Shown here in pieces: positions 6,919 to 51,193 of a DNA stretch of 64,000 nt (the stretch's first letter is position 1; each line of letters starts with the position of its first letter). Under the pieces are notes generated by a model. That model searched no databases. It was not told the origin of the DNA and saw only the letters and a list, made by a program, of their open reading frames with translations. The stretch is taken from contig BPIR01000001.1 in assembly GCA_026004215.1 (NCBI GenBank), positions 832,566 through 896,565 of the forward strand. Direction: 5' to 3'. The position numbers and the translations under genes are program-made. Source of the DNA: Candidatus Binatia bacterium (GTDB lineage: Bacteria > Desulfobacterota > Binatia > HRBIN30).

Positions 6919-7475
6919 CAGCCTCCCGTGACTGGATCCTGCCGAGTCCGAGTCGGTACCGCGGCAAGGACCTCCACCAGTTCCTCGGCGACCTGTGCGG
7001 GATCGCCTGCACGCGCGTCAATGGTGAGATCGGCAAACTTCTCGTAAAGGGGGGCACGCTCGGCCAGTAAGCTGCCCAAGCTCTGGCCCGCAGCCCGAAC
7101 GACCCCTCGGCTCACGAGGTCCAAACCCCTGCGTTCCAAGGCCGGGAAGTCCGCGGACAAGTACACGACCATCCCGAGCTTCCGCAAGTGCTCCATGGCG
7201 CGCACGCTGTACACTACACTGCCCCCGGTAGCCACAACGCACGACTTGGCAGCGACCCCCAAAACCAGTGCTTCTTCCTCTTGGCGAAATCTCTCTGCTC
7301 CAAAACTAGTGAGAAAGTCGCCGAGGGGCTGGCCGACACGCTCGGCCAACAGCACGTCGGTATCCAAGAAAGAGCGCCGCAACTTGTGCGCCAGCAACCG
7401 GCCGACAGCGCTCTTACCCGCTCCCGGCATGCCGATCAAAATGATGTTGCTGCGCAACTGCCCGGCTGAGGCCAT
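6915..7475 (-). CDS. aroK: Shikimate kinase
   Basis: An internal start MASAGQLRSNIILIGMPGAGKS (Walker A) was verified as CAT at 7473-7475. The ORF-track upstream extension is unlikely to be coding. Confidence 0.85.
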   Translation of the reverse strand: MASAGQLRSNIILIGMPGAGKSAVGRLLAHKLRRSFLDTDVLLAERVGQPLGDFLTSFGAERFRQEEEALVLGVAAKSCVVATGGSVVYSVRAMEHLRKLGMVVYLSADFPALERRGLDLVSRGVVRAAGQSLGSLLAERAPLYEKFADLTIDARAGDPAQVAEELVEVLAAVPTRTRQDPVTGGW

Positions 7476-7549: not shown

Positions 7550-8626
7550 ATGACGCGGTCGCAGCTCTTCGCAGCGTTTTTTTTTAGCGTCTTTCTCTTC
7601 CTCCTTTACCAGCTTTACCGCATGTTCGCGGGCTTTTTGGCACCGCTTGCATGGGCCGCCTTGCTGGCACTGATTTTCCACCCGGTCCAGCGCCGCCTGG
7701 TTCGTTGGTTGCGGGGACGGGATGGTCTTGCCGCTTTTACGCTTACCACGCTGGTCATTGGGGGAGTCATTGTACCTGGGCTCGTTCTGCTCGCGTTGGT
7801 GGCTAACGAGTCGGTGCTGCTCTACCAGCGGATCGCCGCGCTGGTGGCCGAAGGCAAGCTCAGCGAATGGCTCGGGTCTCTGGAAAACTCGCGGCTCGGT
7901 CATGTTTGGCTCCACGTGCAGCCGTTGCTTGCGCGGTGGAACGTGGATTTGGGCAGCATTGGTGTAAAGGTGACCAACGCCATTAGCGGCTTTCTGGTCA
8001 CCCAGGCGACCGCGATTGCCAAAAACGTCGTGGGCTTTCTGGTGGACTTTTTCCTCTGCACCGTGGCGCTGTTTTTTCTTTTGCGGGATGGCGAGCGCAT
8101 GATCCAGGCGGTGCGCGATCTCCTCCCTATGGAGCCACACCATCGCGACCTCGTGCTGGCGCGGTTCGCCGACGCTCTAACCGCGGTCGTGCAAGGCTCG
8201 CTCTTGACCGCGCTGGCCCAGGGTACTCTTGCCGGGATCGGTTACCTGGTTCTTGGCGTTCCCTTCGCCGTGTTCCTCGGTTGTGCGACGGCGCTGATCG
8301 CGCTGGTCCCCATGGGCACTCCGCTCGCCTGGGGTGGAGTGGCGGTGTACCTCGTCGCCACGGGGCACCCCATCAAAGCCGTGATCCAGGTGCTGTGGGG
8401 AATTCTCGTCGTGAGCACGATCGACAATGTCATTCGCCCGTGGGTGATCGGCGGCAGAACGAGGATTCCAACCATTCTCCTTTTTTTCGGGATTCTCGGC
8501 GGGCTACAGGCGTACGGCTTTTTGGGGGTGTTTCTTGCTCCTGCGGTGATCGCACTCCTGGTTGCTTTCGTGCGCATCTACCGGGAGGAATACAACATTG
8601 CCCGCCAAGTCGCCGCCGTGGATTAG
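7550..8626 (+). CDS. AI-2E family transporter (PerM/UPF0118)
   Basis: Multi-TM protein with the typical AI-2E architecture. The start was chosen at MTRSQLF (ATG 7550). The track start at 7478 is a TTG. Confidence 0.75.
   Translation: MTRSQLFAAFFFSVFLFLLYQLYRMFAGFLAPLAWAALLALIFHPVQRRLVRWLRGRDGLAAFTLTTLVIGGVIVPGLVLLALVANESVLLYQRIAALVAEGKLSEWLGSLENSRLGHVWLHVQPLLARWNVDLGSIGVKVTNAISGFLVTQATAIAKNVVGFLVDFFLCTVALFFLLRDGERMIQAVRDLLPMEPHHRDLVLARFADALTAVVQGSLLTALAQGTLAGIGYLVLGVPFAVFLGCATALIALVPMGTPLAWGGVAVYLVATGHPIKAVIQVLWGILVVSTIDNVIRPWVIGGRTRIPTILLFFGILGGLQAYGFLGVFLAPAVIALLVAFVRIYREEYNIARQVAAVD
7577..7585. repeat. T9 homopolymer in codons 10-12 (FFF) of the AI-2E transporter gene
   Basis: gcagcgTTTTTTTTTagcg. 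This is unusual in a ~67% GC coding region. Confidence 0.6.
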
Positions 8627-9618
8627 GCGGCACTGTCCGCCCGGGCTGCTCGGGGCACCCGGGCGGCCAAACGGGTTAGGACGTCCTCCGCTTCGCGCAC
8701 GACGTCCCGCACCACTTCCGCCGCGGGTTTGATTTCCCGAATCAGCCCGAGGCCTTGCCCCGCAGGCATGAACGTGCGCTCCGGGTCCGCCCCGCGGCCA
8801 ACGCCCATGTAATCCATCACTCCCTCCTGAACGGACCGCGCCACCTGCGCAGGGAAAGGCAAAATCTCATCGCGCCGTCGCTCCCAGCTCTCGTTGTACG
8901 GGTTCCGGATCGCGCGGGCGGGCTTGCCGGTATAGCAACGGGTGCGAATGGTGTCCGACTCGCCGCTCCGCAAGATCGCTTCCCGATACTCGGGGGCCGC
9001 CTGCGCTTCCGGCGTCGCGATGAACCGGGTACCCATGATGACCCCCTGGGCTCCCAGCGCCAGCGCGGCCACCAGGCCCCTTCCGTCGGCAATACCTCCG
9101 GCTGCAATCACGGGAATGCGAACGGCATCCACGGTTTGCGGCACCAACGCCAAGGTACCCACCTCGCCGGTGTGGCCGCCGGCCTCGGTCCCCTGCGCTG
9201 CCACCATGTCGGCTCCCGCTCGCTCTGCCTTGATTGCATGCTCGACCTTACCGGTCATGACGATGACGATCATCCCGCGATCGTGCATTTCGGCAATGAA
9301 GTCGCGAGGGACGGCCAGCCCCGCAACAAAAATCTTCACCCCCTCTTCAAAGACGACTTTCATCTGGGGCCGAATCATATCGGGGATCGGTGCCAGCAAA
9401 TCGACGGCGAAGGGCTTATCTGTGAGCTCCCGCACCTTGCGGATTTCCTGCCGCAAGCCCTCGGCATCGAGGGTCGCCGCGCCCAAAACGCCCAGCCCGC
9501 CGGCGTTAGAGACTGCCGCCACCAGGCGATGCATCGAAACGCCGCCCATACCCGCCAAGATAATGGGGTAGTCGATGCCCAAACGATCACATAGCTCGGT
9601 CCGGAGTATTGTACTCAT
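8623..9618 (-). CDS. Nitronate monooxygenase / 2-nitropropane dioxygenase family (FMN-dependent, FabK-like)
   Basis: MSTILRTELCDRLGIDYPIILAGMGGVS... matches the NMO TIM-barrel family. The start was verified as CAT at 9616-9618. Confidence 0.8.
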   Translation of the reverse strand: MSTILRTELCDRLGIDYPIILAGMGGVSMHRLVAAVSNAGGLGVLGAATLDAEGLRQEIRKVRELTDKPFAVDLLAPIPDMIRPQMKVVFEEGVKIFVAGLAVPRDFIAEMHDRGMIVIVMTGKVEHAIKAERAGADMVAAQGTEAGGHTGEVGTLALVPQTVDAVRIPVIAAGGIADGRGLVAALALGAQGVIMGTRFIATPEAQAAPEYREAILRSGESDTIRTRCYTGKPARAIRNPYNESWERRRDEILPFPAQVARSVQEGVMDYMGVGRGADPERTFMPAGQGLGLIREIKPAAEVVRDVVREAEDVLTRLAARVPRAARADSAA

Positions 9619-9866
9619 GGTAACTAGCAGTACCGAAAGGCACCTTGTAAAAGAAGCACCCCCCTGGCTCCCGTCTTCACCGAGGCACAGGCACGCGACG
9701 CAACGTGGCCGCTCTCCACGGACTTTGCTGAAGGCCGACGATGGGAGACGCGCTGCGCCGCGTGCAGGAACGACCGTCCGACAACCGTAAAAGCACACGG
9801 GGCAAGCACCGTGCGAACGATGCTTGCCCCGTTCTCGACACCATTGGACGGGAACCGATCGCTCCC

Positions 9867-13641: not shown

Positions 13642-15099
13642 TCAAACGAGCGACTCCATGGAGCGGCGGGCAAGCTCGAACCAAGGCGTGGGAAACAGCC
13701 CCACCACTATCGTGCCCGCCACGGTCGCCAGTAGAGCGGCGAACAGATACGGTCGTGCCATTGGGGCTTCCACCTCCGCACCACCCTCCGTCATGTACAT
13801 CTTCACGAGCACACCGACGTAGTAGTACACGGACACGAGGCTATTCAGCACGGCAATCACGGTAAGCCAGACATAGCCTGCATCCAGCGCCGCGCTGAAC
13901 AGATAAAACTTTCCCATGAAGCCGGCCAACGGTGGCACCCCGGCAAGGGAAAGCATGAACACCGTCATCGCGAAGCCCAGAAACGGATTTCGCAAACCGA
14001 CGCCCGCCCAATCGTCGAGGTCTTCGTTCGGCTGCCCGCGCCGGCCCAAAGCAATCACCACCGCGAAGGCACCAACGGTCATCAGCGTGTACACGGCGAG
14101 ATAGAACAACACCGCAGCCCCGCCCCCCTCGCCGCCAGCCACCATCCCCACTAGCAGATACCCGGCATGCGCGATGCTGGAGTAAGCCAAAAGCCGCTTG
14201 ATATTTCGTTGTACCAAAGCACTGAAGTTGCCGACGCTCATGGTCAGCACTGCCAAGACCCACAGTGCGTCGCGCCAATCAGCCGCCAATGGGCTCAAGG
14301 TGTCCACAAAAATACGAACGAATGCGGCAAATGCCGCGGCCTTGATCCCTGCGGCCATGAAAGCGGTGACTGCGGTTGGTGCCCCTTCGTAAACATCCGG
14401 CGCCCAACTGTGGAACGGAGCTGCCGCCACTTTGAATCCGAACCCGACGAGCAGCAATGCCGCCCCCGCAACCAACAGCATGCGCTGGTCGGCCGAGCCC
14501 GGTGCTGCAGACTCCGCGATGCGGGGGAGCAAGGTCTCACCCGATGCCCCGAACAACAACGCAATCCCCAAAAGCAAGAACCCCGAGGCAAAGGCTCCCA
14601 ACACAAAGTACTTGAGCGCTGCCTCGTTCGAGCGAACTTGGGTCCGCCAAATTCCGGCGAGGGCATACGCCGCGATGGACATCACCTCCAAGCCGAGAAA
14701 AATGACGATCAAGTCCACCGACATCGCCATCAAGATCATGCCTACCGTGGAAAACAAAATCAGTGTGTAGTAGTCCCCGCAGCGGATGTCCGTAGTCTCC
14801 AAGTAATTCATCGAAAGCAGCAACGTCAGCCCAGAGCCCAAACAAAAAAGGACCGTAAAAAATAACCCGTAGCGATCTAGAGCCAGCACTCCGGCCATGG
14901 TCGTACCGCTTTGGTTCCACAGCGGTACGGCGATCCCCACTGCAAGCACGAGCCCGATCAATCCGATCCAGCCCAGCGCGTCGTAATCCGGCCCCTCGCT
15001 GAATAGGTCTGCAATTAACACCAAAACCGCCGTGCCCGTAACGACGAGCAGCGGCAATAGTGGAATCCAAGAAACGTCCGGGAATGCCAGAGACGTCAT
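13642..15099 (-). CDS. nuoN: NADH-quinone oxidoreductase subunit N
   Basis: 485-aa polytopic antiporter-like subunit. It has the NuoN consensus and sits last in the nuo gene string. Confidence 0.9.
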   Translation of the reverse strand: MTSLAFPDVSWIPLLPLLVVTGTAVLVLIADLFSEGPDYDALGWIGLIGLVLAVGIAVPLWNQSGTTMAGVLALDRYGLFFTVLFCLGSGLTLLLSMNYLETTDIRCGDYYTLILFSTVGMILMAMSVDLIVIFLGLEVMSIAAYALAGIWRTQVRSNEAALKYFVLGAFASGFLLLGIALLFGASGETLLPRIAESAAPGSADQRMLLVAGAALLLVGFGFKVAAAPFHSWAPDVYEGAPTAVTAFMAAGIKAAAFAAFVRIFVDTLSPLAADWRDALWVLAVLTMSVGNFSALVQRNIKRLLAYSSIAHAGYLLVGMVAGGEGGGAAVLFYLAVYTLMTVGAFAVVIALGRRGQPNEDLDDWAGVGLRNPFLGFAMTVFMLSLAGVPPLAGFMGKFYLFSAALDAGYVWLTVIAVLNSLVSVYYYVGVLVKMYMTEGGAEVEAPMARPYLFAALLATVAGTIVVGLFPTPWFELARRSMESLV

Positions 15100-16637
15100 T
15101 CGGCCGATCCTCCACCCGCCACGTGCAGCGCTTGGTCGCTACGCGGTAGGCCCGCCCTTTCCAAATATGGCTCCAACCGATCGAGTGTCACTCGCACTGC
15201 GGGTTCCATGCGCTGCAATACCGGTTTCGGGTACAAACCCAAAAGAAAAAACAAAGCAATTAGAGGAACGAACATCGCGACCTCGCGCGCGGACAGGTCT
15301 CGTAACGCAGCATTTTCCGGATGAGTCAGCGGCCCGAACATGACTCGCTGGAACATCCACAAGAGATACACCGCTCCTAAAATCACCCCCGTTGTACCCA
15401 AAATCGCTCCCAGCGGGTAACGCCCGAAGGCTCCCAACAAAATCAGAAACTCGCCTACGAAGCCGTTCAGCCCGGGCAATCCGACCGACGAGAGCATGAC
15501 GACCAGGAACAAAGCTCCAAACACCGGCAACCGTGCCCACAGTCCTCCAAACTCAGCGATCAACCGTGTATGCCGCCGCTCGTAAATTGCCCCTACCGCT
15601 AAAAATAGCCCGCCAGTGGAGAGCCCATGGTTCAGCATCTGCATGAGACTCCCTTGCACGCCTTGTAGTGTGAGGGCGGCCATGCCGAGCATCACAAACC
15701 CGAGGTGGCTCACCGAAGAGTACGCCACCAGCCTCTTGAGATCTGGCTGCACCATACAGACGAGCGCGCCGTAGATGATTCCGATCACAGCCAGTGCGGC
15801 GATCACCGGCATGGCTTCGACGGCCGCCTGAGGAAACAGTGGTATTGCGAAGCGAAGAAAGCCGTACGTGCCCATCTTCAACAAGATTGCCGCCAGAATG
15901 ACAGACCCCCCAGTGGGCGCCTCGGTATGCGCGTCCGGCAACCAGGTGTGCAGCGGAAACATGGGAACCTTGATGGCAAAGGCCAGCGCAAAGGCGGCAA
16001 ACAACAACCGCTGCACGTCGAGCGACAAATGCAATTGCAGCAAATGCTCCCAGGCAAAGCTGTACTGCCCGACCTGCTGGTGGTGCGCCAGCGCGAGGTA
16101 AATGATCGCCACCAGCATCAGTAAGCTACCGGCCATGGTGTACAGCACCAACTTGATTGCCGCGTAGATCCGCCTCTCTCCGCCCCAAATCCCGATCAGA
16201 AAATACATCGGGATCAGCATGAGCTCCCAAAACACGTAAAAGAGAAACAAATCGGTGGCCACCAAAGCCCCGAGCATGGCACTTTCCATGACCAGGAGGA
16301 GCACCAAATACTCCTTCAAGCGGTGGTGCACGTCCCAGGCCTGCACACACACGATGGGCATGAGGAAGGTCGTCAGCAACACGAGGAATAAGCTGATGCC
16401 GTCCACCCCGAGCATGTAATGAATCCCAAAGCGTGGAATCCATGCAGCACGCTCGACCCACTGCAGCCCGCCGTGCACCCCATCGAACTCGGCAACGAGC
16501 CACAGGGAAAAAGCGAAGGGCACAAGTGAAAACACCAGTGCTGCCCGTCGCAATGCCTGCGTTTGCTCTCGGGCGACGAACAAGAGCACTAAAGCGCCCA
16601 GTAGTGGCGTGAACACTATTGCCGACAGCAATGGCAT
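15096..16637 (-). CDS. nuoM: NADH-quinone oxidoreductase subunit M
   Basis: 513-aa antiporter-like subunit. There is a 4-bp overlap with nuoN. Confidence 0.9.
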   Translation of the reverse strand: MPLLSAIVFTPLLGALVLLFVAREQTQALRRAALVFSLVPFAFSLWLVAEFDGVHGGLQWVERAAWIPRFGIHYMLGVDGISLFLVLLTTFLMPIVCVQAWDVHHRLKEYLVLLLVMESAMLGALVATDLFLFYVFWELMLIPMYFLIGIWGGERRIYAAIKLVLYTMAGSLLMLVAIIYLALAHHQQVGQYSFAWEHLLQLHLSLDVQRLLFAAFALAFAIKVPMFPLHTWLPDAHTEAPTGGSVILAAILLKMGTYGFLRFAIPLFPQAAVEAMPVIAALAVIGIIYGALVCMVQPDLKRLVAYSSVSHLGFVMLGMAALTLQGVQGSLMQMLNHGLSTGGLFLAVGAIYERRHTRLIAEFGGLWARLPVFGALFLVVMLSSVGLPGLNGFVGEFLILLGAFGRYPLGAILGTTGVILGAVYLLWMFQRVMFGPLTHPENAALRDLSAREVAMFVPLIALFFLLGLYPKPVLQRMEPAVRVTLDRLEPYLERAGLPRSDQALHVAGGGSAE

Positions 16638-16662
16638 CGTCTCCGCTCCGTCCTACCGCTCT

Positions 16663-18606
16663 TCACCCGCGCCCCAGGAAGTACCCGACCAAGAGCAAGG
16701 CGCCCACTAACAACGACAGCGCATAATGTTGGACATTCCCAGTCTGCCAACGTCTCAGCCAGCGCCCCCCTTCTTCGGCTGCATCTCCTGCGCCGTTCAC
16801 GGCTCCATCGATCACAGCAACATCGAACTGGCGCCACAATGCATGAGCCAACTGCACCACTGGGCGCACAAACACAGCCTCGTAGAGCTCATCTACGTAG
16901 TACTTGTTCCACAGTAGCCGATAGACTGCGCGGAACTGACGGGCGACTTGCTCAGGGAGTTCGGGAACTTGGACATAAAACCGATAAGCCACGCCAATAC
17001 CGACGACGGCGGCCAGAACGGAGACCGCCATGAGCATCAACTCGAGCCCAAGCTCGCCGTGGTGTTCGCCATGCGCGGCTGCGGAAAGCACCGGGGCCAG
17101 AAAAGCCCCAAACCGATCGCCCCAAGCCAAAAAGTCAGGCAAACCCACGTAGCCGCCAACCACAGACAGGACCGCCAGCGCCAGCAGCGGTACCGTCATG
17201 GAACGCGGCGACTCGTGGATGTGCGCCCGCGTGTGCGCGTCGGCCCGACACTCCCCCCAGAAAACCAAGAAGAACAACCGGAACATGTAAAACGCCGTGA
17301 GTGTGGCCCCTAGAACGCCCAACCCCCAAAGGGCGGGCGAATGCGCAAACGCCCGAGCCAAAATCATATCCTTACTGAAAAAGCCGGCCAGTCCCGGAAC
17401 ACCCGCGATCGCCAGCGTCCCCACCAGAAAGGTACCATAGGTGACCGGCATCCAACTCCGCAGCCCCCCCATCTTCCGAATGTCCTGCTCGCCACCCATC
17501 CCGTGAATCACACTGCCGGCACCCAGAAACAACAGCGCCTTGAAAAACGCATGAGTCACCAGGTGGAAAATCCCCGCCGAAAATGCACTCACACCTACCG
17601 CCAAGAACATGTAACCGAGCTGGCTAATCGTAGAGTACGCCAACACCTTCTTGATGTCCGTTTGCACCAGCCCAATCGTGGCAGCGAACACCGCCGTGAG
17701 CGCGCCCACTATGGCGACCACCTCCAATGCCAGCGGCGCCAGTTCGTAAAGCCCGTGTAGTCGAGCAATCATATAAACGCCCGCAGTCACCATTGTGGCC
17801 GCGTGAATGAGTGCACTGACCGGCGTGGGCCCCGCCATGGCATCCGGCAACCAAACATAGAGAGGCAATTGCGCAGACTTGCCCGTAGCCCCCACAAACA
17901 ACAGCAACGCCACTGCTGTGACGACGCCAGGGGGCAACTCTGGGGCACGCCCGGCGATTTCGCTGAACGACAAGGAATGGCTGCCCGGTCCGAGGTTCCA
18001 CAGCAACAAGAAGATCCCGACCAAGAAAGCCGCGTCACCCACACGGTTGACAATGAAAGCCTTCTTGCCGGCGCTCGCATTGGCGTCGTTGTCGTACCAA
18101 AAGCCGATGAGCAAATACGAGCACAACCCAACGCCCTCCCAGCCGACAAAAAGCAGGACGAGGTTGTCCGCCATGACCAACACGAGCATCGCCACGGTAA
18201 ACAAGTTCAGGTAGGCGAAATACCGCGCGTAACTCGGGTCGTCGTGCATGTAGCCGACCGAGTACACGTGAATGAGGAAGCCGACCCCGGTGACCACCAG
18301 GATCATCACCGCGCTCAAGGCATCCACCCGCAGCGCGAACGGAACATCCAAGCTACCCACCGGCAGCCACTGCCACAGCACCTGCTGCAACACCAAACCC
18401 GGTGGGCCGGACCAAATCTGGAAGAAGGCAAAAAGAGATACACAGAAAGCCGCCCCGACCACCGCAGGACCAACGACGCTGACCGCTCGTTTGCCCAAAC
18501 GGTTGCCCAAGAAAATGTGGAACAATACCCCCAATGCCGGAAACGCAGGAATCCACCACAAGAAGCGCACAGTTTGCAGCGTGAGCGCAGAGCCGACCTC
18601 GTGCAT
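16663..18606 (-). CDS. nuoL: NADH-quinone oxidoreductase subunit L
   Basis: 647 aa, including the long C-terminal amphipathic helix region typical of NuoL. Confidence 0.9.
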   Translation of the reverse strand: MHEVGSALTLQTVRFLWWIPAFPALGVLFHIFLGNRLGKRAVSVVGPAVVGAAFCVSLFAFFQIWSGPPGLVLQQVLWQWLPVGSLDVPFALRVDALSAVMILVVTGVGFLIHVYSVGYMHDDPSYARYFAYLNLFTVAMLVLVMADNLVLLFVGWEGVGLCSYLLIGFWYDNDANASAGKKAFIVNRVGDAAFLVGIFLLLWNLGPGSHSLSFSEIAGRAPELPPGVVTAVALLLFVGATGKSAQLPLYVWLPDAMAGPTPVSALIHAATMVTAGVYMIARLHGLYELAPLALEVVAIVGALTAVFAATIGLVQTDIKKVLAYSTISQLGYMFLAVGVSAFSAGIFHLVTHAFFKALLFLGAGSVIHGMGGEQDIRKMGGLRSWMPVTYGTFLVGTLAIAGVPGLAGFFSKDMILARAFAHSPALWGLGVLGATLTAFYMFRLFFLVFWGECRADAHTRAHIHESPRSMTVPLLALAVLSVVGGYVGLPDFLAWGDRFGAFLAPVLSAAAHGEHHGELGLELMLMAVSVLAAVVGIGVAYRFYVQVPELPEQVARQFRAVYRLLWNKYYVDELYEAVFVRPVVQLAHALWRQFDVAVIDGAVNGAGDAAEEGGRWLRRWQTGNVQHYALSLLVGALLLVGYFLGRG

Positions 18607-33137: not shown

Positions 33138-34370
33138 ATGTCAGCTCCTGTTTTCATCTTGGGCGGATACCAAACCGATTTTGCGCGCAATTGGAAAAAA
33201 GAAAACAAGCATATTGTCGCCATGATTCGCGAAGCCGTCGAAGGCGGCTTGGAGGCAACGGGAATCGATCCGAAAGAAATCCAGGTAGGCCACGTGGGAA
33301 ACTTCGCCGCTGAGCTTTACGCCATGCAGGGCCACCTGGGCGCGTTTCTGGTGGATGTGGATCCAGCTTTTTCCGGATTACCCACCGCCCGGCACGAAGC
33401 CGCCTGCGCCTCCGGAAGCATTGCGATTTTGGCTGCCTCCGCAGAGATCGAAGCGGGCCGTTATGACCTCGCCTTGGTGGTGGGTGTGGAACAAATGAAA
33501 ACGGTCGATCCGGCCAAGGGCGGCGAGTTTCTCGGCACCGCTGCCTGGTACGAGCGCGAGGCAAAAGGCATCGAGTTTCCATTCCCCAAGCTTTTTGGTC
33601 GCCTCGGGGACGAGTACGATCGCCGCTACGGCCTCAAAGACGAACATCTCGCCCACATCTCCGCAATCAACTACTCCAACGCCAAGCGCAACCCTCTGGC
33701 TCAAACCCGCAACTGGTACATGACGGAAGATCAGGCCCGCTCGGTAGACAAGTTCAACACCGTCATCGGCGGGCGGATCAAGATTTCCGACTGCTCGCAG
33801 GTCACCGATGGCGCGGTGTCGCTTTTCCTCGCATCGGAAAAGGCGGCTGCAGCGTATGCCAAAAAGCGGGGGATTTCCTTGGACAGCATTCCTCGCTTGC
33901 TCGGGTGGGGCCACCGGACTGCGCCTATCGAATTCGATGCCAAAATTGCCGAAAGCAAGAACCAACCCTATGTGCTCCCCCACACCCGCCAGGCAATCTT
34001 GGACGCGTTCCGCCGCGCCGGTATTCCAGACGTGTGGGCCGTGCAAGCCATCGAAACACATGATTGCTTTACAACTTCAGAGTATATGGCCATCGATCAC
34101 TTTGGCATCACGAAACCGGGAGAATCTTGGAAAGCCATCGAAGACGGGACCATCGAAATGGGTGGCAAATTGCCGATCAATCCGAGCGGTGGCCTGATTG
34201 GTTGCGGTCACCCGGTGGGGGCCACGGGTGTACGGCAAGTGCTCGACGCATTCAAACAAGTCACCGGTCAGTGCGGTGACTACCAGGTCGAAAATGCCAA
34301 GCGGGTGGCCACGCTGAACATCGGGGGGAGCGGAACGACGAGCGTCTCCTTCGTGGTTGGATTCGCTTGA
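33138..34370 (+). CDS. Thiolase-like protein (SCP2-type 3-ketoacyl-CoA thiolase / acetyl-CoA acetyltransferase family)
   Basis: Conserved Cys in HEAACASGS, and C-terminal GHPVGATG / NIGGSG motifs. Confidence 0.85.
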
Positions 34371-42844: not shown

Positions 42845-43668
42845 AGTCGGCGTTGTATTTCGGATGGGTCCAACACGTACGGCACCATCCCCAGCGTCAT
42901 CGATTCCGATACCGCTCCGCTTTCTTTTATCTCGACCTTCACGAGCTGCCTATACTACGGCGACGACTTTGGCTTCTCGGCGTCAACCGGCCCGGCTTGT
43001 TTTCCCTTCGCGAGAGCGATTTTCTGGATGGGCGCGGCTTGTCGGTGGAACGGCTGAAGACTTTCGTAGCTCAGCAGGGTCTCCCCAGCGAAGCTATAGC
43101 CGCCACACGGCTGCTCACGCATGTCCGGCAATGGGGTTACGTATTCAATCCCATCTCCCTCTTCTTCTGTTTCAGCCGCGCAGACGAACTTCTTTACGTC
43201 GTTGCCGAGGTCAACAACACTTTCGGAGAGCGTTTTCACTACGTGCTATCCGACCTTTCCCACCACGGCGGCAACTCAGTGTTCTTCGCCAAGGTCGAAA
43301 AGCACATGCATGTGTCGCCGTTCGCTTCGCGCGACGGCTGTCACTACGAATTTCGTTTTCGGCCACCCGCGGATCGGTTTTCGCTAGCCATTCGGCTCCG
43401 GGAGCAAGATCGGCCCGTAATCGATGCCGCTCTCTGGGCCGAGCGGCATCCTCTGTCCGACCGCACGTTGCTGCGTCTTGCGGCCCGCCACCCCTGGCTG
43501 ACGGCCAAGGTCACACTCGCAATCCACTGGGAGGCCCTGAAACTGTACCGAAAAGGCCTGCCATTTTTTTCCCAACCGCCCCCGAGCCCGGCGCAAGCAG
43601 CGCAGCAAGCGATTTGGCAGCGGTCGAATTTACACCACGAGCAGTCCAAGCTGCGGTTTCGCTCGTAG
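42841..43668 (+). CDS. DUF1365 domain protein
   Basis: Conserved core ...GYVFNPISLFF...FHYV.... There is a 4-bp overlap with the upstream oxidoreductase. Confidence 0.8.
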   Translation: MKSALYFGWVQHVRHHPQRHRFRYRSAFFYLDLHELPILRRRLWLLGVNRPGLFSLRESDFLDGRGLSVERLKTFVAQQGLPSEAIAATRLLTHVRQWGYVFNPISLFFCFSRADELLYVVAEVNNTFGERFHYVLSDLSHHGGNSVFFAKVEKHMHVSPFASRDGCHYEFRFRPPADRFSLAIRLREQDRPVIDAALWAERHPLSDRTLLRLAARHPWLTAKVTLAIHWEALKLYRKGLPFFSQPPPSPAQAAQQAIWQRSNLHHEQSKLRFRS

Positions 43669-45091: not shown

Positions 45092-46261
45092 ATGGAAATT
45101 TTTGGCTATTGCGACCCGCGCTTCGAGCGTGTACGCGACGCGTTCCGCCACAACTTTGCCTCGCGCGGCGAGCTCGGGGCGGCCGTCCACGTCATTGTCC
45201 AGGGCAAGCCCGTGGTGGACTTGTGGGGCGGCATCGCCGATCACCACACCGGCACGGCGTGGAAAGAGGACACCCTCGTGCTGGTTTTCTCCTCGACCAA
45301 AGGGGCCACAGCCGCGTGCGCGCACCTGTTGCGTACGCGGGGACTGTTGGATTTCGAAGCTCCCGTGGCACGCTACTGGCCGGAATTTGCGCAACAGGGG
45401 AAAGAGTCTCTGCCGGTTTCTTTCCTGCTCACCCACCAGGCGGGACTGGCGGCCATCGAAGAACCCCTTCCTCCCGAGGCACTGTTCGACTGGTCGCGCA
45501 TGACCACGGCCCTGGCGCGACAGCGCCCGCTGTGGAGGCCGGGCGAGGGGCACGGCTACCACGCTGTCACCTTCGGGTTTTTGGTGGGAGAGGTCATTCG
45601 GCGTGTGAGTGGGCGAAGCGCCGGGCACTTTCTGCGCGAGGAAATCGCCAAACCTTTGGGCCTGGAATTTTGGATCGGTTTGCCCGCCGAGTACGAACCC
45701 CGCGTCGCCAGAGTACGCCTGCCTCCGCTGCGCACGCGCCCGACCCCGTTTTTTCGCGCCCTCATGCAGCGTGGCTCGCTGACGTGGCAAGCCTTCATGA
45801 ACCCGCCGAGCTTCACGAGCGGCAGCGCCGCCAACACGCGCGCGGTGCGTGCGGCCGAGCTCCCCGCCAGTAACGGAATCACCAGCGCCCGCGGGTTGGC
45901 TGGATTGTACGCCGCATTGATCGGAAGGGTAAACGGTGCCGCTACACCACTGCTCGACCCCGATACCCGCGCCCTCGCGGAACGTGTCGCTGTGGATGGT
46001 CCAGACCGCGTTCTGCTCGTGCGCACCCGCTTCAGCCACGGGTTCATGAAAAGCGTGGCCGACGATCCCAACGACTCTGTCCGCTTCGGCCCTAACGATG
46101 CAGCGTTCGGCCACGTCGGCGCGGGCGGGTCCTTCGGCATGGCGGATCCGGTGGCGGAGGTGGCCATGGGATACGTGATGAACCAGCTCGGCCCGGGTAT
46201 TTTCCTGAACGAACGCGGCCAGAGCCTCATTGACGCCGTGTACGAATGCCTGGGGGCGTGA
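45092..46261 (+). CDS. Serine hydrolase, beta-lactamase/EstB-like esterase family
   Basis: SxxK nucleophile motif (FSSTKG) and class C-like YxN/KTG-equivalent regions. The antisense 373-aa ORF is rejected. Confidence 0.8.
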   Translation: MEIFGYCDPRFERVRDAFRHNFASRGELGAAVHVIVQGKPVVDLWGGIADHHTGTAWKEDTLVLVFSSTKGATAACAHLLRTRGLLDFEAPVARYWPEFAQQGKESLPVSFLLTHQAGLAAIEEPLPPEALFDWSRMTTALARQRPLWRPGEGHGYHAVTFGFLVGEVIRRVSGRSAGHFLREEIAKPLGLEFWIGLPAEYEPRVARVRLPPLRTRPTPFFRALMQRGSLTWQAFMNPPSFTSGSAANTRAVRAAELPASNGITSARGLAGLYAALIGRVNGAATPLLDPDTRALAERVAVDGPDRVLLVRTRFSHGFMKSVADDPNDSVRFGPNDAAFGHVGAGGSFGMADPVAEVAMGYVMNQLGPGIFLNERGQSLIDAVYECLGA

Positions 46262-46543
46262 AGTGCCGGCAAGCCACTACCGAGGCCCTTCGCAGCCACT
46301 CGGCCGCGGTTCCCTCCCACGCCTCGCCCCGAGTGGGGCACGGTGCGGAGCGCCAATACTAGCACTGGCGCAGAGGTGGCAAGGGTCGTTCGAACCCGAA
46401 GACACGGAGGAACTAGCCTGCAAGCGGTTCTCTTCCACCGTTGGCTAGAACGCCCGCGGCTTACGTGCATCCCGACAGACGGAAGATCCGAAGGGCACAC
46501 CAGGCTTCCACCTACGGGCACCACGACCCTTCCCGGGTCAAAG

Positions 46544-47311
46544 TCAGTGGACGGGTGCCACCCTCGGGTGCGGCGCGCGCTGCATCATCGAGAGCAGTGC
46601 CCAAGCGCACAACCATGCGTAAAAGACAACGTTCAACCACAACTTTACCGGGCGGAGGAGTTCGAGGCCTACAGCACCTCCAGAGTATACCGCGACGCTC
46701 AGGGCAAACGGGTTTCCCCGAGTCTGGCGGACGAGGACCCGAGCCGACGCAGCAGCGAAAAGGGCCAGCACTGCAAAGTACAGCGGCAGAGGCTCTACGG
46801 GCAACGTGTGCGCGGCCTCCGGGGGCAGCCAGCCCGCACGGGCCTGCTGCAAGAAGACGACGCTGTGCTTGCTCAACGAAACTGCCCACGGAGTCGTGCT
46901 GGGCAGACCAAAACAGCAACCATTGAGGAAACATCCCAGGTGAACGAACGCCACGCTCGCCCAAGCCGGCGCGGCCAGCGCATGCATGGACTCGCGCAGG
47001 CGAAGGAGATCCAGTCGCTGCCCGATAGAAAGTATCGCCACTGCGAGCGACAACCCTCCTGGAAGGCGAAACCCGGCGAGCCAATTCGGCGCCACGAAGG
47101 GAAAGTCGCTCGGACACAAAACGCGCTCCAGCACATACGTACCCTTCGCACCCAAGAAGACCGCAATGACCAACGCCATGGAGAACAGTGTCGCCGGGAA
47201 ACGCCCAACTCCGGCGCGAACGAGGCAGCGCGGCGCCCACACCAGAAATGCCACGGCCGCTAACACCCAGGCGGCATAGTACGTCGGTATGCCAGCAACG
47301 TACGGCAGCAT
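46544..47311 (-). CDS. lgt: Prolipoprotein diacylglyceryl transferase-like membrane protein
   Basis: Polytopic membrane protein with the Lgt-like signature HLGCFLNGCCFG...PWAV. Confidence 0.6.
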   Translation of the reverse strand: MLPYVAGIPTYYAAWVLAAVAFLVWAPRCLVRAGVGRFPATLFSMALVIAVFLGAKGTYVLERVLCPSDFPFVAPNWLAGFRLPGGLSLAVAILSIGQRLDLLRLRESMHALAAPAWASVAFVHLGCFLNGCCFGLPSTTPWAVSLSKHSVVFLQQARAGWLPPEAAHTLPVEPLPLYFAVLALFAAASARVLVRQTRGNPFALSVAVYSGGAVGLELLRPVKLWLNVVFYAWLCAWALLSMMQRAPHPRVAPVH

Positions 47312-47400
47312 TGCCTACCCCGGTGTCGGCAGGCGCGACATTCGAGATATCGCTTGCCGAGAGGCGACTCGGTCCACCGTTGCGGCGAGGGCGCTCCTCA

Positions 47401-47985
47401 TCAGTAAGCCTCGACTGCGCCCACTGCCTCGAGGTCTTCCACCGGTGGCCACTGCCACGTTCCCCACTCGCCACTCGTGAGTTCGTACTTGCCTGCCGCG
47501 CCCCCCACACGCCACGAGCCGGAAAAGTTCCCAACGACATTCCCCGCCTCGTCGAACAGCTTACCGTACACCACTCCCGGCTCGATCACGCCCTCGCAAC
47601 CGAGCACCTCCCCGTCGGAACGCCCCGGCAGAACAACTTTTCCGCGTAGCTCCTTTCCCTCCCGCACCCCCACAAAGCTCCAAGCTGTGGCGGTGCGCTC
47701 CCCAGTCGAAGGAGACTGCCCAATTCCGGACTCGGCCAAATCTCCGCGCAACGCCAGCGACTCCGGCAACACAACTCCCAGCAGCAACGAATCCGGCGCC
47801 AGCAGCACCAGGCTCACGGCAATCGCTGCCCCCACCCAAAACCCGCACCACCGAGGGATCTTGGAAACCCCCACCCGCTGGCGCTCGCAGTCGCTCACGG
47901 CAGCACCTCCACGCTCACGGCCGGGCACCACACACAGGGCTCCTCCACCCACGGCCGACACGCCCACTGGTAGTGGCCGCGGCAC
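47401..47985 (-). CDS. Hypothetical secreted protein
   Basis: Hydrophobic N-terminal segment, with a compositionally normal C-terminal half (VVYGKLFDEAGNVVGNF...). The start is uncertain. It lies directly upstream of the lgt-like gene. Confidence 0.4.
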   Translation of the reverse strand: MPRPLPVGVSAVGGGALCVVPGRERGGAAVSDCERQRVGVSKIPRWCGFWVGAAIAVSLVLLAPDSLLLGVVLPESLALRGDLAESGIGQSPSTGERTATAWSFVGVREGKELRGKVVLPGRSDGEVLGCEGVIEPGVVYGKLFDEAGNVVGNFSGSWRVGGAAGKYELTSGEWGTWQWPPVEDLEAVGAVEAY

Positions 47986-48494
47986 TGAAGAGTGTCCAAC
48001 CGGTACTCACCCGCTTCGACCCAGCTTTCCACTCGCACACGACAGCGAAACAACTGCGGCTCCCCCCGGGGCCGGCGGCGCAACTCCCCGTACAATGCAA
48101 TCCCCCTGCATGGGACGTCTTCCCCGCACCCCATCGGGTAAGGCTCCGCCCTCAGCCCGGCATACGCCGGCGCGTCCACCGCGACGCAACTCGCCGTGTG
48201 CCCTCCGGCAACCCGGACAACCGGCCCCAGCAGAGTCGTGCCCGCAGTCGCCCACGGAAAGCTCACCAATGCCGCAACCTTCCAACCCTGCCACTCTTCA
48301 TCGCGAGCAAACCACGGGGACACCAAGGTCACCACCAGCACCGCTTCTTGCCCCGCCCGCGCCCGCACGGGCTCCGTGGCTACCCGCACCGTGCGGCTGC
48401 AATCGATCCCCTGCGCCACGCACTCCCGCCTCAGCCCCTCCACCCCAACCACAGCAAGAACAAACCACAGCACTGCGAATGCACGACGCAACAT
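47895..48494 (-). CDS. Hypothetical Cys-rich secreted protein
   Basis: Internal start MLRRAFAVLWFVLAVVGVEG (signal peptide) followed by a Cys-rich domain. The track's 120-codon Gly/Arg-rich extension is rejected. Confidence 0.45.
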   Translation of the reverse strand: MLRRAFAVLWFVLAVVGVEGLRRECVAQGIDCSRTVRVATEPVRARAGQEAVLVVTLVSPWFARDEEWQGWKVAALVSFPWATAGTTLLGPVVRVAGGHTASCVAVDAPAYAGLRAEPYPMGCGEDVPCRGIALYGELRRRPRGEPQLFRCRVRVESWVEAGEYRLDTLQCRGHYQWACRPWVEEPCVWCPAVSVEVLP

Positions 48495-49057
48495 CACTGG
48501 CTGCCTCCCGCAGGCTGGTTGTCTTCCTGCCACGTCGCCACGCAGCTCGACAGCACGTTGCGCACCCCACGCACCACCTCGTCCACCGTCACTGCCCCGT
48601 CCTCGTTGCCATCCGCCGCAGCACAGCTCTCGTACGGCCCCGCTCCCACCACGATGCCCACCGCCCGCACCAACTCCTCCACCGTGACCCGGGCGTCCCG
48701 ATTGCAGTCGCCCACACACGGCACCACCTGCAACGTACCCCCTTGGCAGCCTCGCCCGCATTCCGCCGGCAGCACGAGAGCCTCGCGGTTCCCCGTGCAC
48801 TCGATCGGATAGGCACGCGGCTTTGCCGTGGGAGGGATGGTGAACTCGCAGCAAATGGCTTCATCGTCAGGGGCAAACGGAAGACCGCTGGGAAGGGGCC
48901 ACCCTAACTCGTCCGGCCAAGCAAATGGTTTCTCAGGCACCCAGGGCCCCCCGCGGTCGGCCAGGGAGCACACCAATCCGGACAGGATGTCCCCCTGGAT
49001 TCCTTCGCACGGTGTCGACTCTCCGCAACCGGGGGGAAAAAAAATCCCCTCCCACAC
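48494..49057 (-). CDS. Hypothetical Cys-rich protein with dockerin-like Ca-binding repeats
   Basis: Two EF-hand-like dockerin repeats (DCNRDARVTVEELV, DGNEDGAVTVDEVV). GTG start. Codons 5-9 lie on a T8C6 tract. Confidence 0.45.
   Translation of the reverse strand: MWEGIFFPPGCGESTPCEGIQGDILSGLVCSLADRGGPWVPEKPFAWPDELGWPLPSGLPFAPDDEAICCEFTIPPTAKPRAYPIECTGNREALVLPAECGRGCQGGTLQVVPCVGDCNRDARVTVEELVRAVGIVVGAGPYESCAAADGNEDGAVTVDEVVRGVRNVLSSCVATWQEDNQPAGGSQ
49031..49044. repeat. G6A8 (C6... T8 on coding strand) compound homopolymer at codons 5-9 of the ORF 48494..49057
   Basis: ggggggaaaaaaaa on the + strand. It encodes I-F-F-P-P on the minus strand. Confidence 0.7.
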
Positions 49058-49630
49058 CTCGGTGGCGCTTTCGCTGGGATCAACCGCGCCGGCAACAACG
49101 AAGCCTTCCTCTCGCCCCAGCTTAGGCTATTCCGGAGAGCCAAGGACCAACGGTCTAGCTTCGGATTGTAAAGCCTACAGAAAACAGGCCCGGAAAACCC
49201 CCTCAAATCCCGGAACCGTAAAGAGAAGGTGGCATACCAGGTGCCGTACTGATCACAACAACGAAAGCGCGGCCGCACCGCCACACACACTCGTGTCCGC
49301 GCGCCCGGCGCTCCGATCGCATCCGATGCTTTCACAGGCTCCACGACATGCTGGGCAAAATAAGGCCAAGGTTGGTCTTCGTTTGCCGGAAAATCCATGA
49401 CAAATTGTCCGGCGCAGCGCGGCGCGCAAGCAAAGAGCAACCCAAATCCACCTATTAGACTGGCTAACGTCCGTTGGTGTTCCGATGCTCGATGAAATCG
49501 TGCTTTCATGGCCCGCTCTCCTCAGCAGCAGCTCCCCGAACAGCCACCTACCCACAAGGTGGATCGCCCAGGAAACGGCCACAACGATGTGCCGCGAAGG
49601 TCCCCCGCCCGCGCCCGCTCCACCCGAGGG

Positions 49631-49870
49631 CACCGCGGGCAGGCACCAGGCCTGCCCCTACACACGTCGCCCGCAATCGCATCGTTTCCCCCGGCACCAC
49701 GGGCGTGTAGGGGCGACCCTTGTGGTCGCCCGGGGTTCCCCCGGGCACCGCGGGGGGGCGCCGGCACCGCGGGCAGGCACAAGGCCTGCCCCTACACACG
49801 TCGGCCGCAATCGCATCGTTTCCCCCGGCACCATGGGCGCGTAGGGGCGACCCTTGTGGTCGCCCGGGAC
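49631..49870. repeat. Tandem dimer of a 134-bp nested-palindrome repeat element
   Basis: Unit: caccgcGGGCAGGCacaagGCCTGCCCctacacacgtcg[g/c]ccgcaatcgcatcgtttcccccggcacca[c/t]gggcg[t/c]gtaGGGGCGACCcttgtGGTCGCCCgg. The period is 134 bp (49631→49765). It contains two 8-bp-stem hairpins plus an outer CCTACACACG/CGTGTAGG inverted repeat. Confidence 0.75.
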
Positions 49871-50373
49871 CGGTGTCCTCGCCGCCTGCTGAGCCCGGGC
49901 CAGGCCCAATCTGGACGGTGGCCGGGTGTGCCTGGCGGTGGCCAGCGATTTCCGGCAAGCACGGCACCGAGCAACGACGCCCAACTCGAGGCATCTACCA
50001 CAGACCCCCTCCAACCAGCCGGATTCACCACTTCACGGCAGGAGAGCCGCCGGGCGGTGGCGCCTCGAATCAAGTCCTCGACGCCGTAGTCGCCATCACG
50101 ATCGTAATCCACGTTCGGGCAACGCCGCGGTAGGCCACTCGCATCCGGCCACAACACATCGTCGCGGCCCTCGACCAACTCGGATGTGTCTACAACACCA
50201 TCTTCGTTACAATCCACTGGGCAGGCTCCCAGCCCCCATGCCGACCCGATCACCCATTGGAGGCACAAAAGAGGCCCGCCAAGCCCGAGTCGCAGCCAAC
50301 ACCTGACCCCCCCCCCCCCCCAACGCAGAGAAACTCTCTTGCGTGCGATCGGCAGCATGGGGATCCTCCCCAA
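49792..50373 (-). CDS. Small dockerin-like repeat ORF with G15 tract near its 5' end (the 3' part of the track ORF runs into the repeat element and is probably not coding)
   Basis: Dockerin-like repeats (DCNEDGVVDTSELV, DYDRDGDYGVEDLI). The N-terminal WGGGGV is encoded by the G15 tract. The C-terminal ~30 codons are a translation of repeat unit 2. Confidence 0.35.
   Translation of the reverse strand: MGRIPMLPIARKRVSLRWGGGGVRCWLRLGLGGPLLCLQWVIGSAWGLGACPVDCNEDGVVDTSELVEGRDDVLWPDASGLPRRCPNVDYDRDGDYGVEDLIRGATARRLSCREVVNPAGWRGSVVDASSWASLLGAVLAGNRWPPPGTPGHRPDWAWPGLSRRRGHRSRATTRVAPTRPWCRGKRCDCGRRV
50307..50321. repeat. C15/G15 homopolymer
   Basis: acctgaCCCCCCCCCCCCCCCcaacg is 15 consecutive C, the longest homopolymer in the window. 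It lies within the 5' coding region of the minus-strand ORF 49792..50373. Confidence 0.9.
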
Positions 50374-50583
50374 AGGCCATTTACGTTTACACCCACCGGC
50401 CGAATGGAGTCAAGCAGCGAGATAGGTCAGTGACCGCATCGCCGGGGCAAGGCCCCACCAAGGCTGGCCAACGATGCGCGTGCATGTCACGCACAGGCCG
50501 TTCCGTTACTCGGGCCATGATTGCCTAAACCTCGGCAGCGGGGACTTCCTATCGGTAACCGATGCGACACTCTACAAGGCGAG

Positions 50584-50835
50584 CCCGCGGGCGGCTCCCT
50601 CGGTATGGCGGATCCGGTGGCGGAGGGCCAGTGCCGCAAAGTACAGCGGCAGAGGCTCTACGGGCAACGTGTGCGCGGCCTCCGGGGGCACCCAGCCCGC
50701 ACGGGCCTGCTGCAAGAAGACGACGCTGTGCTTGCTCAACGAAACTGCCCACGGCGTCGCGCTGGGCACACCAAAACAGCAGCCATTGAGGAAACATCCC
50801 AGGTGAACGAACGCCACGCTCACCCAGGCCGGAGT
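50584..50835 (-). pseudogene. Internally deleted duplicate of the esterase-3'/lgt segment (lgt fragment pseudogene)
   Basis: 50584-50627 is ~90% identical to 46121-46161 (the esterase 3' end). It is joined directly to 50628-50830, which is ~95% identical to 46762-46964 (lgt codons for …VAFVHLGCFLNGCCFG…PWAVSL…). This means about 600 bp are missing relative to the parental locus. Confidence 0.6.
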
Positions 50836-50869
50836 CGTGAGCGCAATCGCCCACGGAAAGCGGGCGCGG

Positions 50870-51095
50870 GCACCACGGGCAGGCACAAGGCCTCCCCCTA
50901 CACACGTCGCCCGCGACCGCATCGTTTCGCCCGGTACCGTGGGCGTGTAGGGGCGACCCTTGTGGTCGCCCGGGGTTCCCCCGGGCACCGCGGGGGGGCG
51001 CGGGCACCGCGGGCAGGCACAAGGCCTGCCCCTACACACGTCGGCCGCAATCGCATCGTTTGCCCCCGGCACCACGGGCGCGCACACCCACACCT
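50870..51095. repeat. Second tandem dimer of the 134-bp nested-palindrome repeat element (second unit truncated)
   Basis: Same unit as 49631-49870, in the same orientation, with period 134 (50871→51005). The second unit degenerates after ...ggcaccacgggcg. Confidence 0.75.
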
Positions 51096-51193
51096 TCGGG
51101 CGACCGGCTCTATCCGAGACGGGAATGGGCAGGAAGACGACTCGTGCGCCCACCCGCTTGGCTCTCGCACGAACGTTGGGGTAAACAACGGCC

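Follow-up and report, generated by a model that had tools for sequence, protein, structure and literature searches.

Does a 15-nt guanine run at the beginning of a small gene for a secreted protein act as a genetic switch, or has it been left behind on a gene that is falling apart? The question is raised by a 64-kb stretch of the genome of a Candidatus Binatia bacterium (the whole stretch is called the window here), in which the run occupies exactly positions 50307-50321 and reads as C15 on the forward strand and as G15 on the minus strand, which is the coding strand of the open reading frame (ORF) KatS3mg077_0769. On balance, and with confidence only slightly better than even, we favor the explanation that this is a hypermutable tract built like a phase switch and situated on a decaying copy of a gene, where it would be either the relic of a switch or an expansion that has been tolerated.

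The run stands out by length. No other G/C run in the window exceeds 8 nt, the runner-up being a C8, and the number of runs of at least 15 nt expected per 64 kb from base composition is ~0.003 for C and ~0.0003 for G. A first-pass annotation of this DNA had placed the run far beyond the expected homopolymer length, which these figures bear out; the GC content of ~67% that it quoted was too high, with actual values of 62% for the window and 65-66% around the locus. G/C runs of at least 7 nt are scarcer in the window than expected (C, 3 vs. ~19; G, 4 vs. ~7). The uninterrupted G15 exceeds the length of about 8-9 nt from which G/C homopolymers count as hypermutable, and established knowledge of homopolymer slippage suggests that a run of this length would gain and lose bases often during replication. 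The sole other homopolymer of at least 9 nt in the window is a T9 at 7577-7585, which encodes FFF near the start of an intact 382-aa membrane-protein ORF.

The placement of the run is that of a switch. KatS3mg077_0769 is a 188-aa ORF (49792..50358, minus strand) whose N-terminus resembles a signal peptide and is followed by a dockerin/EF-hand-like module and by a tail extending into hairpins resembling repetitive extragenic palindromes (REP-like repeats). It starts at ATG 50358, 6 nt downstream of a Shine-Dalgarno (SD) sequence, GGAGG (50365..50369, minus strand), and stops at 49794-49792; its product is identical to the NCBI entry 'hypothetical protein KatS3mg077_0769 [Candidatus Binatia bacterium]', located on a 1.74-Mb contig. 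Read on the minus strand, the run forms part of TGG GGG GGG GGG GGG GTC, i.e., W13 (TGG), G14 to G17 and V18 (GTC), and the motif WGGGGV described in the first-pass annotation is thus found at codons 13-18. When alleles of different length were simulated from ATG 50358, G12, G15 and G18 stayed in frame (187, 188 and 189 aa), whereas changes of ±1 or ±2 nt truncated the product to 49 and 50 aa (G13 and G16) or 35 and 36 aa (G14 and G17). The assembled length of 15 nt is in frame with the SD-ATG. Any change in length that is not a multiple of three would end the product after 35-50 aa, and because G15 would be expected to slip frequently, the population should contain a mixture of translational ON and OFF states. 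OFF may be leaky, since in the other two phases an upstream ATG (50380) or GTG (50396) is in frame with the downstream domain, neither with a good ribosome-binding site. A sigma-70 promoter scan found no promoter, and an Rfam search of 46-52 kb returned no match.

What the run could switch depends on the gene in which it lies. Orthologues were found by two database searches and a degenerate-pattern scan, and those with a taxonomic label come from Binatia metagenome-assembled genomes (MAGs), except L002, which is binned as Myxococcales. Judged from these alignments the ORF is a real conserved gene in origin. Orthologue identity across the module is 49-60%, the proportions of nonsynonymous and synonymous differences are 0.30-0.35 (pN) vs. 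0.65-0.87 (pS, saturated for pairs that include the window), and dN/dS is 0.2-0.35 where computable; conservation had been named beforehand in the first-pass annotation as a check on the ORF. The module of the window (50038..50229, minus strand; residues ~44-107) carries no stop and no frameshift. The two dockerin/EF-hand-like repeats that had been proposed can be seen in the sequence as EF-hand/dockerin-type loops, at 50179-50214 (loop 1, D49-C-N-E-D-G-V-V-D-T-S-E60) and 50074-50109 (loop 2, D84-Y-D-R-D-G-D-Y-G-V-E-D95), each a 12-residue loop with the D/N/D/G pattern and an acidic residue at position 12. No Pfam family matched the ORF at E ≤ 1, and no curated profile was reached, PF00404 included. 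Among 35 relatives of the module found by profile search, Pfam matches were to EF-hand_1 (21), an EF-hand pair (12) and Dockerin_1 (7); P0010, the one member whose score was inspected, reached 21.3 bits for Dockerin_1, below the cut-off of 22.9. An AlphaFold2 model built on the 35-sequence alignment had confidence scores (predicted local distance difference test, pLDDT) of 84-97 over the module and two helices following the loops; an earlier model from a two-sequence alignment (pLDDT 35) was discarded. The top 17 Foldseek matches of the model in the PDB were all dockerins, though weak ones (E 0.2-4; template modeling score 0.46-0.67), and a PDB sequence search with the ORF returned insignificant EF-hand similarity only (E 0.18). 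"Dockerin-like" therefore appears to be a fair label, with dockerin membership unproven. A lipobox-like L/V-A-A-C precedes the first Cys of the module in several orthologues; the window has LGAC.

The homology of the ORF to its orthologues is limited to residues ~18-155. Full-length Binatia relatives are 725-812 aa long. Behind a signal peptide and the dockerin-like module they carry a lysyl-oxidase domain, then a Cys-rich part and a Pro/Thr linker, and they close with a C-terminal domain whose end reads …GGCSGSCC. Two of them, P0003 and P0005, match PF01186 (Lysyl_oxidase; cut-off, 20.4 bits) with scores of 35.6 and 38.3 bits. In a tblastn comparison, P0003 aligned to the window with aa 18-127 at 50238-49894 and with aa 717-745 at 49626-49540, in one frame and with nothing in between. 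The second match (49540..49626, minus strand; 83% identity) is what remains of the C-terminal ~29 aa of the lysyl-oxidase-like protein (…RGTSLWPFPGRSTLWVGGCSGSCC), situated in the same frame as the ORF but past its stop. Approximately 590 codons have been lost, and ~245 nt of REP-like hairpins (array 1, 49625..49870, two ~134-nt units) occupy their place and supply the stop codon of the ORF. Judged by these matches, the ORF is the surviving front end (N-terminal ~155 aa) of the gene for a much larger lysyl-oxidase-like exoprotein, and it is small because it is the remnant of a far larger gene. The lysyl-oxidase catalytic domain (PF01186) is absent from the window, where a contingency locus would call for an intact gene. 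Describing the locus as a small dockerin-like ORF was apt as regards the module, which is conserved, but did not recognize that the frame is a truncated remnant. One reading of the g528 C-terminus match at 49540-49626, as repeat-encoded junk, was considered and rejected, as tblastn identified a true lysyl-oxidase-like C-terminus. The C-termini of P0003, P0060 and P0069 share the pattern …RGTxLWPxPGRSTLxVGGC(S/T)G(S/T)CC, and the final ~29 residues persist in the window (49522-49626, minus strand).

The surroundings of the remnant are in decay as well. The ORF lies within a lineage-specific insertion of 4.9 kb (46268..51180) between a beta-lactamase-family gene and an amidohydrolase gene. Flanking genes are colinear with those of the Binatia relatives L011 and L012, and synteny breaks at 46268 and 51180. 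The gap between the two flanking genes measures 157 nt in L012, 0.7 kb with a 195-aa PEMT/ICMT-like gene in L011 and 4.9 kb in the window, and the slot looks like an insertion hot spot in this comparison. What was inserted is a copy of a gene cluster seen in other Binatia, where it lies downstream of RND efflux genes. The lysyl-oxidase-like gene comes first there, followed by the gene for a 320-aa protein whose C-terminus bears a dockerin-like module, then the gene for a 173-aa protein and lastly the Lgt-like gene. In the window, the neighboring cluster gene (48494..49509, minus strand; signal peptide and C-terminal dockerin-like module) is broken into two overlapping ORFs of 201 and 187 aa, and the frame changes exactly at a T8C6 run (49031-49044; on the forward strand, G6 followed by A8). 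Replacing T8 by T9 fuses both into 338 aa, and the fusion aligns with the single 320-aa ORF of L006 (E 1e-29); the break could reflect either a wrong HiFi consensus or a genuine frameshift. A conserved programmed frameshift at T8 was rejected, since the offsets differ (-1 in the window, +1 in L001), L002 has one frame and L006 a single ORF. Screening runs of at least 6 nt for ORFs that lengthen after a change of ±1 was noisy: the two flags that were checked, T7 at 43564 and T9 at 7577, were chance fusions of neighboring ORFs in GC-rich DNA, G6 at 7049 and at 34323 were flagged as well, and homology backed the 48947-49044 cluster only.

At the far end of the cluster, the Lgt-like gene (46544..47311, minus strand; PF01790, 50.9 bits) is a conserved member in other Binatia, with counterparts downstream of the lysyl-oxidase-like gene in L005 (3952-4710) and L006 (9475-10272). 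Its family is that of the prolipoprotein diacylglyceryl transferases, and a dedicated lipidation step is conceivable. Upstream of the ORF, a second, deletion-riddled copy of 46120-49841 is found at 50586..51082 as four colinear direct pieces of 90-94% identity. The first, of 41 nt, copies the 3' end of the beta-lactamase-family gene; another, of 222 nt, matches the Lgt-like gene, and the others measure 30 nt and 218 nt (REP array 2). This copy lacks ~600, 1250 and 1360 nt, and overlaps of 3 nt and 14 nt at two of its junctions suggest microhomology. The first-pass description of a mosaic region with direct repeats and pseudogene fragments agrees with these colinear scraps and with the broken neighbor gene. 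The two REP-like arrays (49625-49870 and 50865-51090) have a period of ~134 nt and are built of two hairpins, GGGCAGGCACAAGGCCTGCCCCTAC and GTAGGGGCGACCCTTGTGGTCGCCC; they occur nowhere else in the 64 kb, and none of the related loci L001-L008, the first eight, contains them. Translated, the arrays give rise to spurious ORFs, e.g., …VGATLVVARG…. Elsewhere in the window, a strong positive AT skew (0.27-0.36) at 13642-18606 stems from three minus-strand Proton_antipo_M genes (nuoL/M/N-like) and is ordinary.

How far the length of the run can be trusted depends on how the genome was obtained. The KatS3mg MAGs were assembled with metaFlye 2.8.3 from PacBio HiFi reads alone, without short-read polishing (PMC9671151), and circular consensus sequencing reads are poorer than PCR-free Illumina reads at the length of 15-25-nt homopolymers, even at top quality scores (PMC11878640). 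Tract length in this HiFi-only MAG, from a spring of 52 °C, is therefore uncertain by about ±1, and 15 could be 14 or 16. It might be argued from the same facts, and from a neighboring gene that is broken exactly at T8C6, that the run is a sequencing or assembly problem altogether, i.e., that it is absent or not 15 nt long and its in-frame state accidental. We consider this improbable: HiFi errors shift a run by ~1 base and do not make a 15-mer, good coding sequence lies on both flanks in one frame, Met and the conserved Trp21 are as far apart as they are in orthologue P0002, and both T9 (7577-7585) and C8 (30635-30642) occur in intact ORFs. The long run itself is real.

A second copy of the KatS3mg077_0769 protein was found neither in exact look-ups nor in collection scans, and one assembly holds it. 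Protein-pattern scans of genome and metagenome collections returned 600 chance matches each, none of them confirmed, and a degenerate DNA pattern for GDYGVEDLIRG yielded two genome loci and no metagenome locus. For exact look-ups of the ORF product and the neighboring amidohydrolase, nothing is on record. A Logan contig (run DRR290133) with an identical amidohydrolase stops in REP array 2, ~700 nt before the tract.

No orthologue carries a long G run. The closest relative, L002, reads CGC GGG GGG CGT (R-G-G-R) ~14 codons past its ATG, opposite W-GGGG-V of the window, and because this G6 stands at the equivalent place, the tract can be regarded as a slippage expansion of a short Gly-Gly run. 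Slipped-strand expansion from G6 to G15 would be the simplest reading, drawn from one short alignment. Gly-Gly in the closest relative could also be taken to mean that a Gly4 stretch is needed in the signal peptide and that the run owes its maintenance to its amino acid sequence. We give this hardly any credence, as glycine does not require four consecutive GGG codons flanked by further G's, other orthologues are hydrophobic at this place and none has Gly4.

The run might instead be maintained for a nucleic acid structure. G15 is a minimal G3-N-G3-N-G3-N-G3 motif located 37 nt past the start codon, where a quadruplex, in the mRNA or in the DNA of the non-template strand, could throttle translation or transcription. 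With G-quadruplex parameters, ViennaRNA predicted a minimum free energy fold of the 5' mRNA (50250-50400, minus strand) that uses the run as a three-tetrad quadruplex, more stable than the best non-quadruplex fold by ~28 kcal/mol at 37 °C and ~13 kcal/mol at 70 °C. Such a role is nevertheless very improbable in our estimation, given that the structure is a prediction, the run is not conserved among orthologues and the window holds no comparable element elsewhere. In the predicted fold of the same segment, the SD region is able to pair in a small GGGG…CCCC hairpin.

The signal-peptide region in which the run lies is unsettled in other lineages too. L004 and L008 carry (TG)6-C-(GT)3 in this region, with the conserved SD-ATG out of phase; with 5 or 8 TG units it would be in phase. 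A near-identical strain, L007, has an uninterrupted (TG)12.5, which is 6 nt longer and in the same phase (L004, 1277-1295; L007 and L008, 3000-3024; the upstream GGAGGTG-ATG is out of phase in all). In L006 and four variants, a break at a G5 run divides the signal-peptide ORF from the mature part: in L006 (5309-5560), a 58-aa signal-peptide ORF is followed by a 725-aa mature part, and the frame changes at or just before G5, where L001 has G6 (9150-9170). This break seems to be common to all five L006-type variants, since each protein is 725 aa; the long ORF is nevertheless undamaged. At 7630-7632, within the signal peptide, L003 has an in-frame TAG in place of the GAG of L001, and L002, a MAG of 3x coverage, has frameshifts in the region. 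In L005 and L009 the signal-peptide region is intact and without a repeat. A lesion of some kind is thus present in most orthologues examined. Across the ~133 kb examined, the sole G/C run of at least 9 nt and the sole non-GC dinucleotide repeat of at least 6 units both fall in the signal-peptide region of this family. The lysyl-oxidase-like gene of L001 is also split into ORFs of 271 and 528 aa near a C6 run (9480-9660).

This pattern is compatible with recurrent slippage switching as well as with recurrent decay of a dispensable gene, and the available alleles cannot separate the two because the (TG)n variants share one phase and the G5 break is common to all five variants. Taken at its strongest, it would mean that the signal-peptide repeats (G15, (TG)n and short G runs) serve as an ON/OFF switch that recurs under selection in a Binatia-specific family of secreted lysyl-oxidase-like/dockerin-like proteins, a proposal that we regard as doubtful.

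Whether G15 itself is a working contingency locus, kept by selection for stochastic ON/OFF expression of secreted dockerin-like or lysyl-oxidase-like proteins to the benefit of the population, can be considered in this light. The anatomy matches that of classic genic poly-G switches (5' coding sequence, signal-peptide region, secreted protein), and 15 nt falls within the G9-21 range spanned by proven Neisseria genic tracts (PMC5953494). The remaining G/C runs of the window are depleted, and orthologues show repeats at the same region, with (TG)12.5 vs. an interrupted (TG)9.5 in near-identical strains and a split at G5 where a relative has G6; the concentration of both outlying repeats of the ~133 kb in this family's region also speaks for a switch. 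Set against this, the gene of the window is without its catalytic and C-terminal domains and sits in a decaying insertion, the (TG)n alleles differ by 6 nt with the frame preserved and all four variants in the same phase, the five L006-lineage variants share their break at a short G5, which looks fixed rather than switching, and there is a single such tract in 64 kb. A working contingency locus is possible but unproven, and the truncation makes it less likely; overall, we judge it unlikely.

Because the truncated copy lies inside a decaying insertion, a relic or a tolerated expansion is rated above a working switch. In the first case, the tract would be left over from a switch that formerly controlled the gene in its full length; in the second, its expansion would have been tolerated because selection on the gene was relaxed. 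The earlier suggestion that the tract is a substrate for phase variation is accordingly retained in part: the outlying length, the position in the 5' coding sequence and the truncation caused by ±1 or ±2 nt all stand, but the gene is incomplete and its insertion is decaying. Several observations weigh against a relic or tolerated expansion. Long pure homopolymers seldom persist neutrally and G/C runs are depleted in the window, so the persistence of G15 could point to selected mutability. The assembled phase is ON, and no stop or frameshift has entered the dockerin-like module. The homology between G6 and G15 rests on a short, weakly conserved N-terminal alignment. Finally, independent repeats and indels in the same ~50-codon region of other lineages ((TG)n, G5 vs. 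G6) would fit slippage switching across the family.

The choice between these readings has consequences beyond the locus. Repeat-mediated phase variation is understood almost wholly from host-associated bacteria. If G15 or its counterparts switch, a case in an uncultivated environmental lineage would make stochastic switching of secreted proteins a general bacterial strategy, and would extend phase variation to uncultivated, free-living, moderately thermophilic bacteria beyond host-adapted pathogens. The Binatia lysyl-oxidase-like family would offer a concrete place for testing this with existing metagenomic reads. If G15 is a relic, the locus is cautionary, as a perfectly placed long homopolymer can sit on a pseudogene. 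In HiFi-only MAGs, homopolymer length and adjoining frameshifts need read-level checks before they are read biologically. Our literature search for links between Binatia and lysyl oxidase, dockerins or phase variation found none.

Among known proteins, bacterial lysyl-oxidase-like proteins (PF01186) are one point of comparison: the full-length orthologues P0003 and P0005 score above the curated cut-off, whereas the ORF of the window is without the entire domain. Its module resembles type I dockerin and EF-hand pair modules in having two putative repeats of a calcium loop plus helix, in the EF-hand and Dockerin_1 profiles matched by its relatives and in the dockerins that are the best, though weak, PDB matches of its AlphaFold2 model. 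It differs from a type I dockerin in its conserved Cys pairs (CPxDC…RCP…C), and while a cellulosomal dockerin is located at the C-terminus of an enzyme, the Binatia module is located at the N-terminus of a lysyl-oxidase-like protein. We know of no cohesin partner of the module, and no cohesin search was made.

As a switch, the locus can be compared with the genic poly-G/poly-C loci of Neisseria (pilC, pglA, lgtA, nalP and others), in which a G/C homopolymer likewise lies in the 5' reading frame and a change of ±1 nt leads to OFF. Like the tract of the window, that of pilC is found in the part of the gene that encodes the signal peptide. The Neisseria tracts, however, vary between cells and strains, belong to complete, functional surface genes and occur by the dozen in host-adapted organisms, whereas here there is one tract in 64 kb, one assembly, a truncated gene and a free-living organism of a hot spring (52 °C). 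In Helicobacter pylori, sabA, hopZ and oipA are switched by dinucleotide repeats in the signal-peptide regions of outer-membrane protein genes. The orthologues L004, L007 and L008, although not the window itself, are similar in that near-identical strains have a (TG)n repeat of unequal length in the signal-peptide region, the phase of which sets the frame of the SD-ATG, but they differ in showing two alleles that are 6 nt apart, keep the frame and are all out of phase with the SD-ATG.

Homopolymer tracts of the Mycobacterium tuberculosis complex are shorter than G15. G/C homopolymer indels are reported to silence genes reversibly in the GC-rich M. tuberculosis complex and Cutibacterium acnes (10.1101/2022.06.10.495637, PMC4746626), and these actinobacterial cases differ from ours in being backed by thousands of isolates or by multi-strain comparison. 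Overall, the kind of element considered here is well known, and G15 is at best a further case of it in an unusual host.

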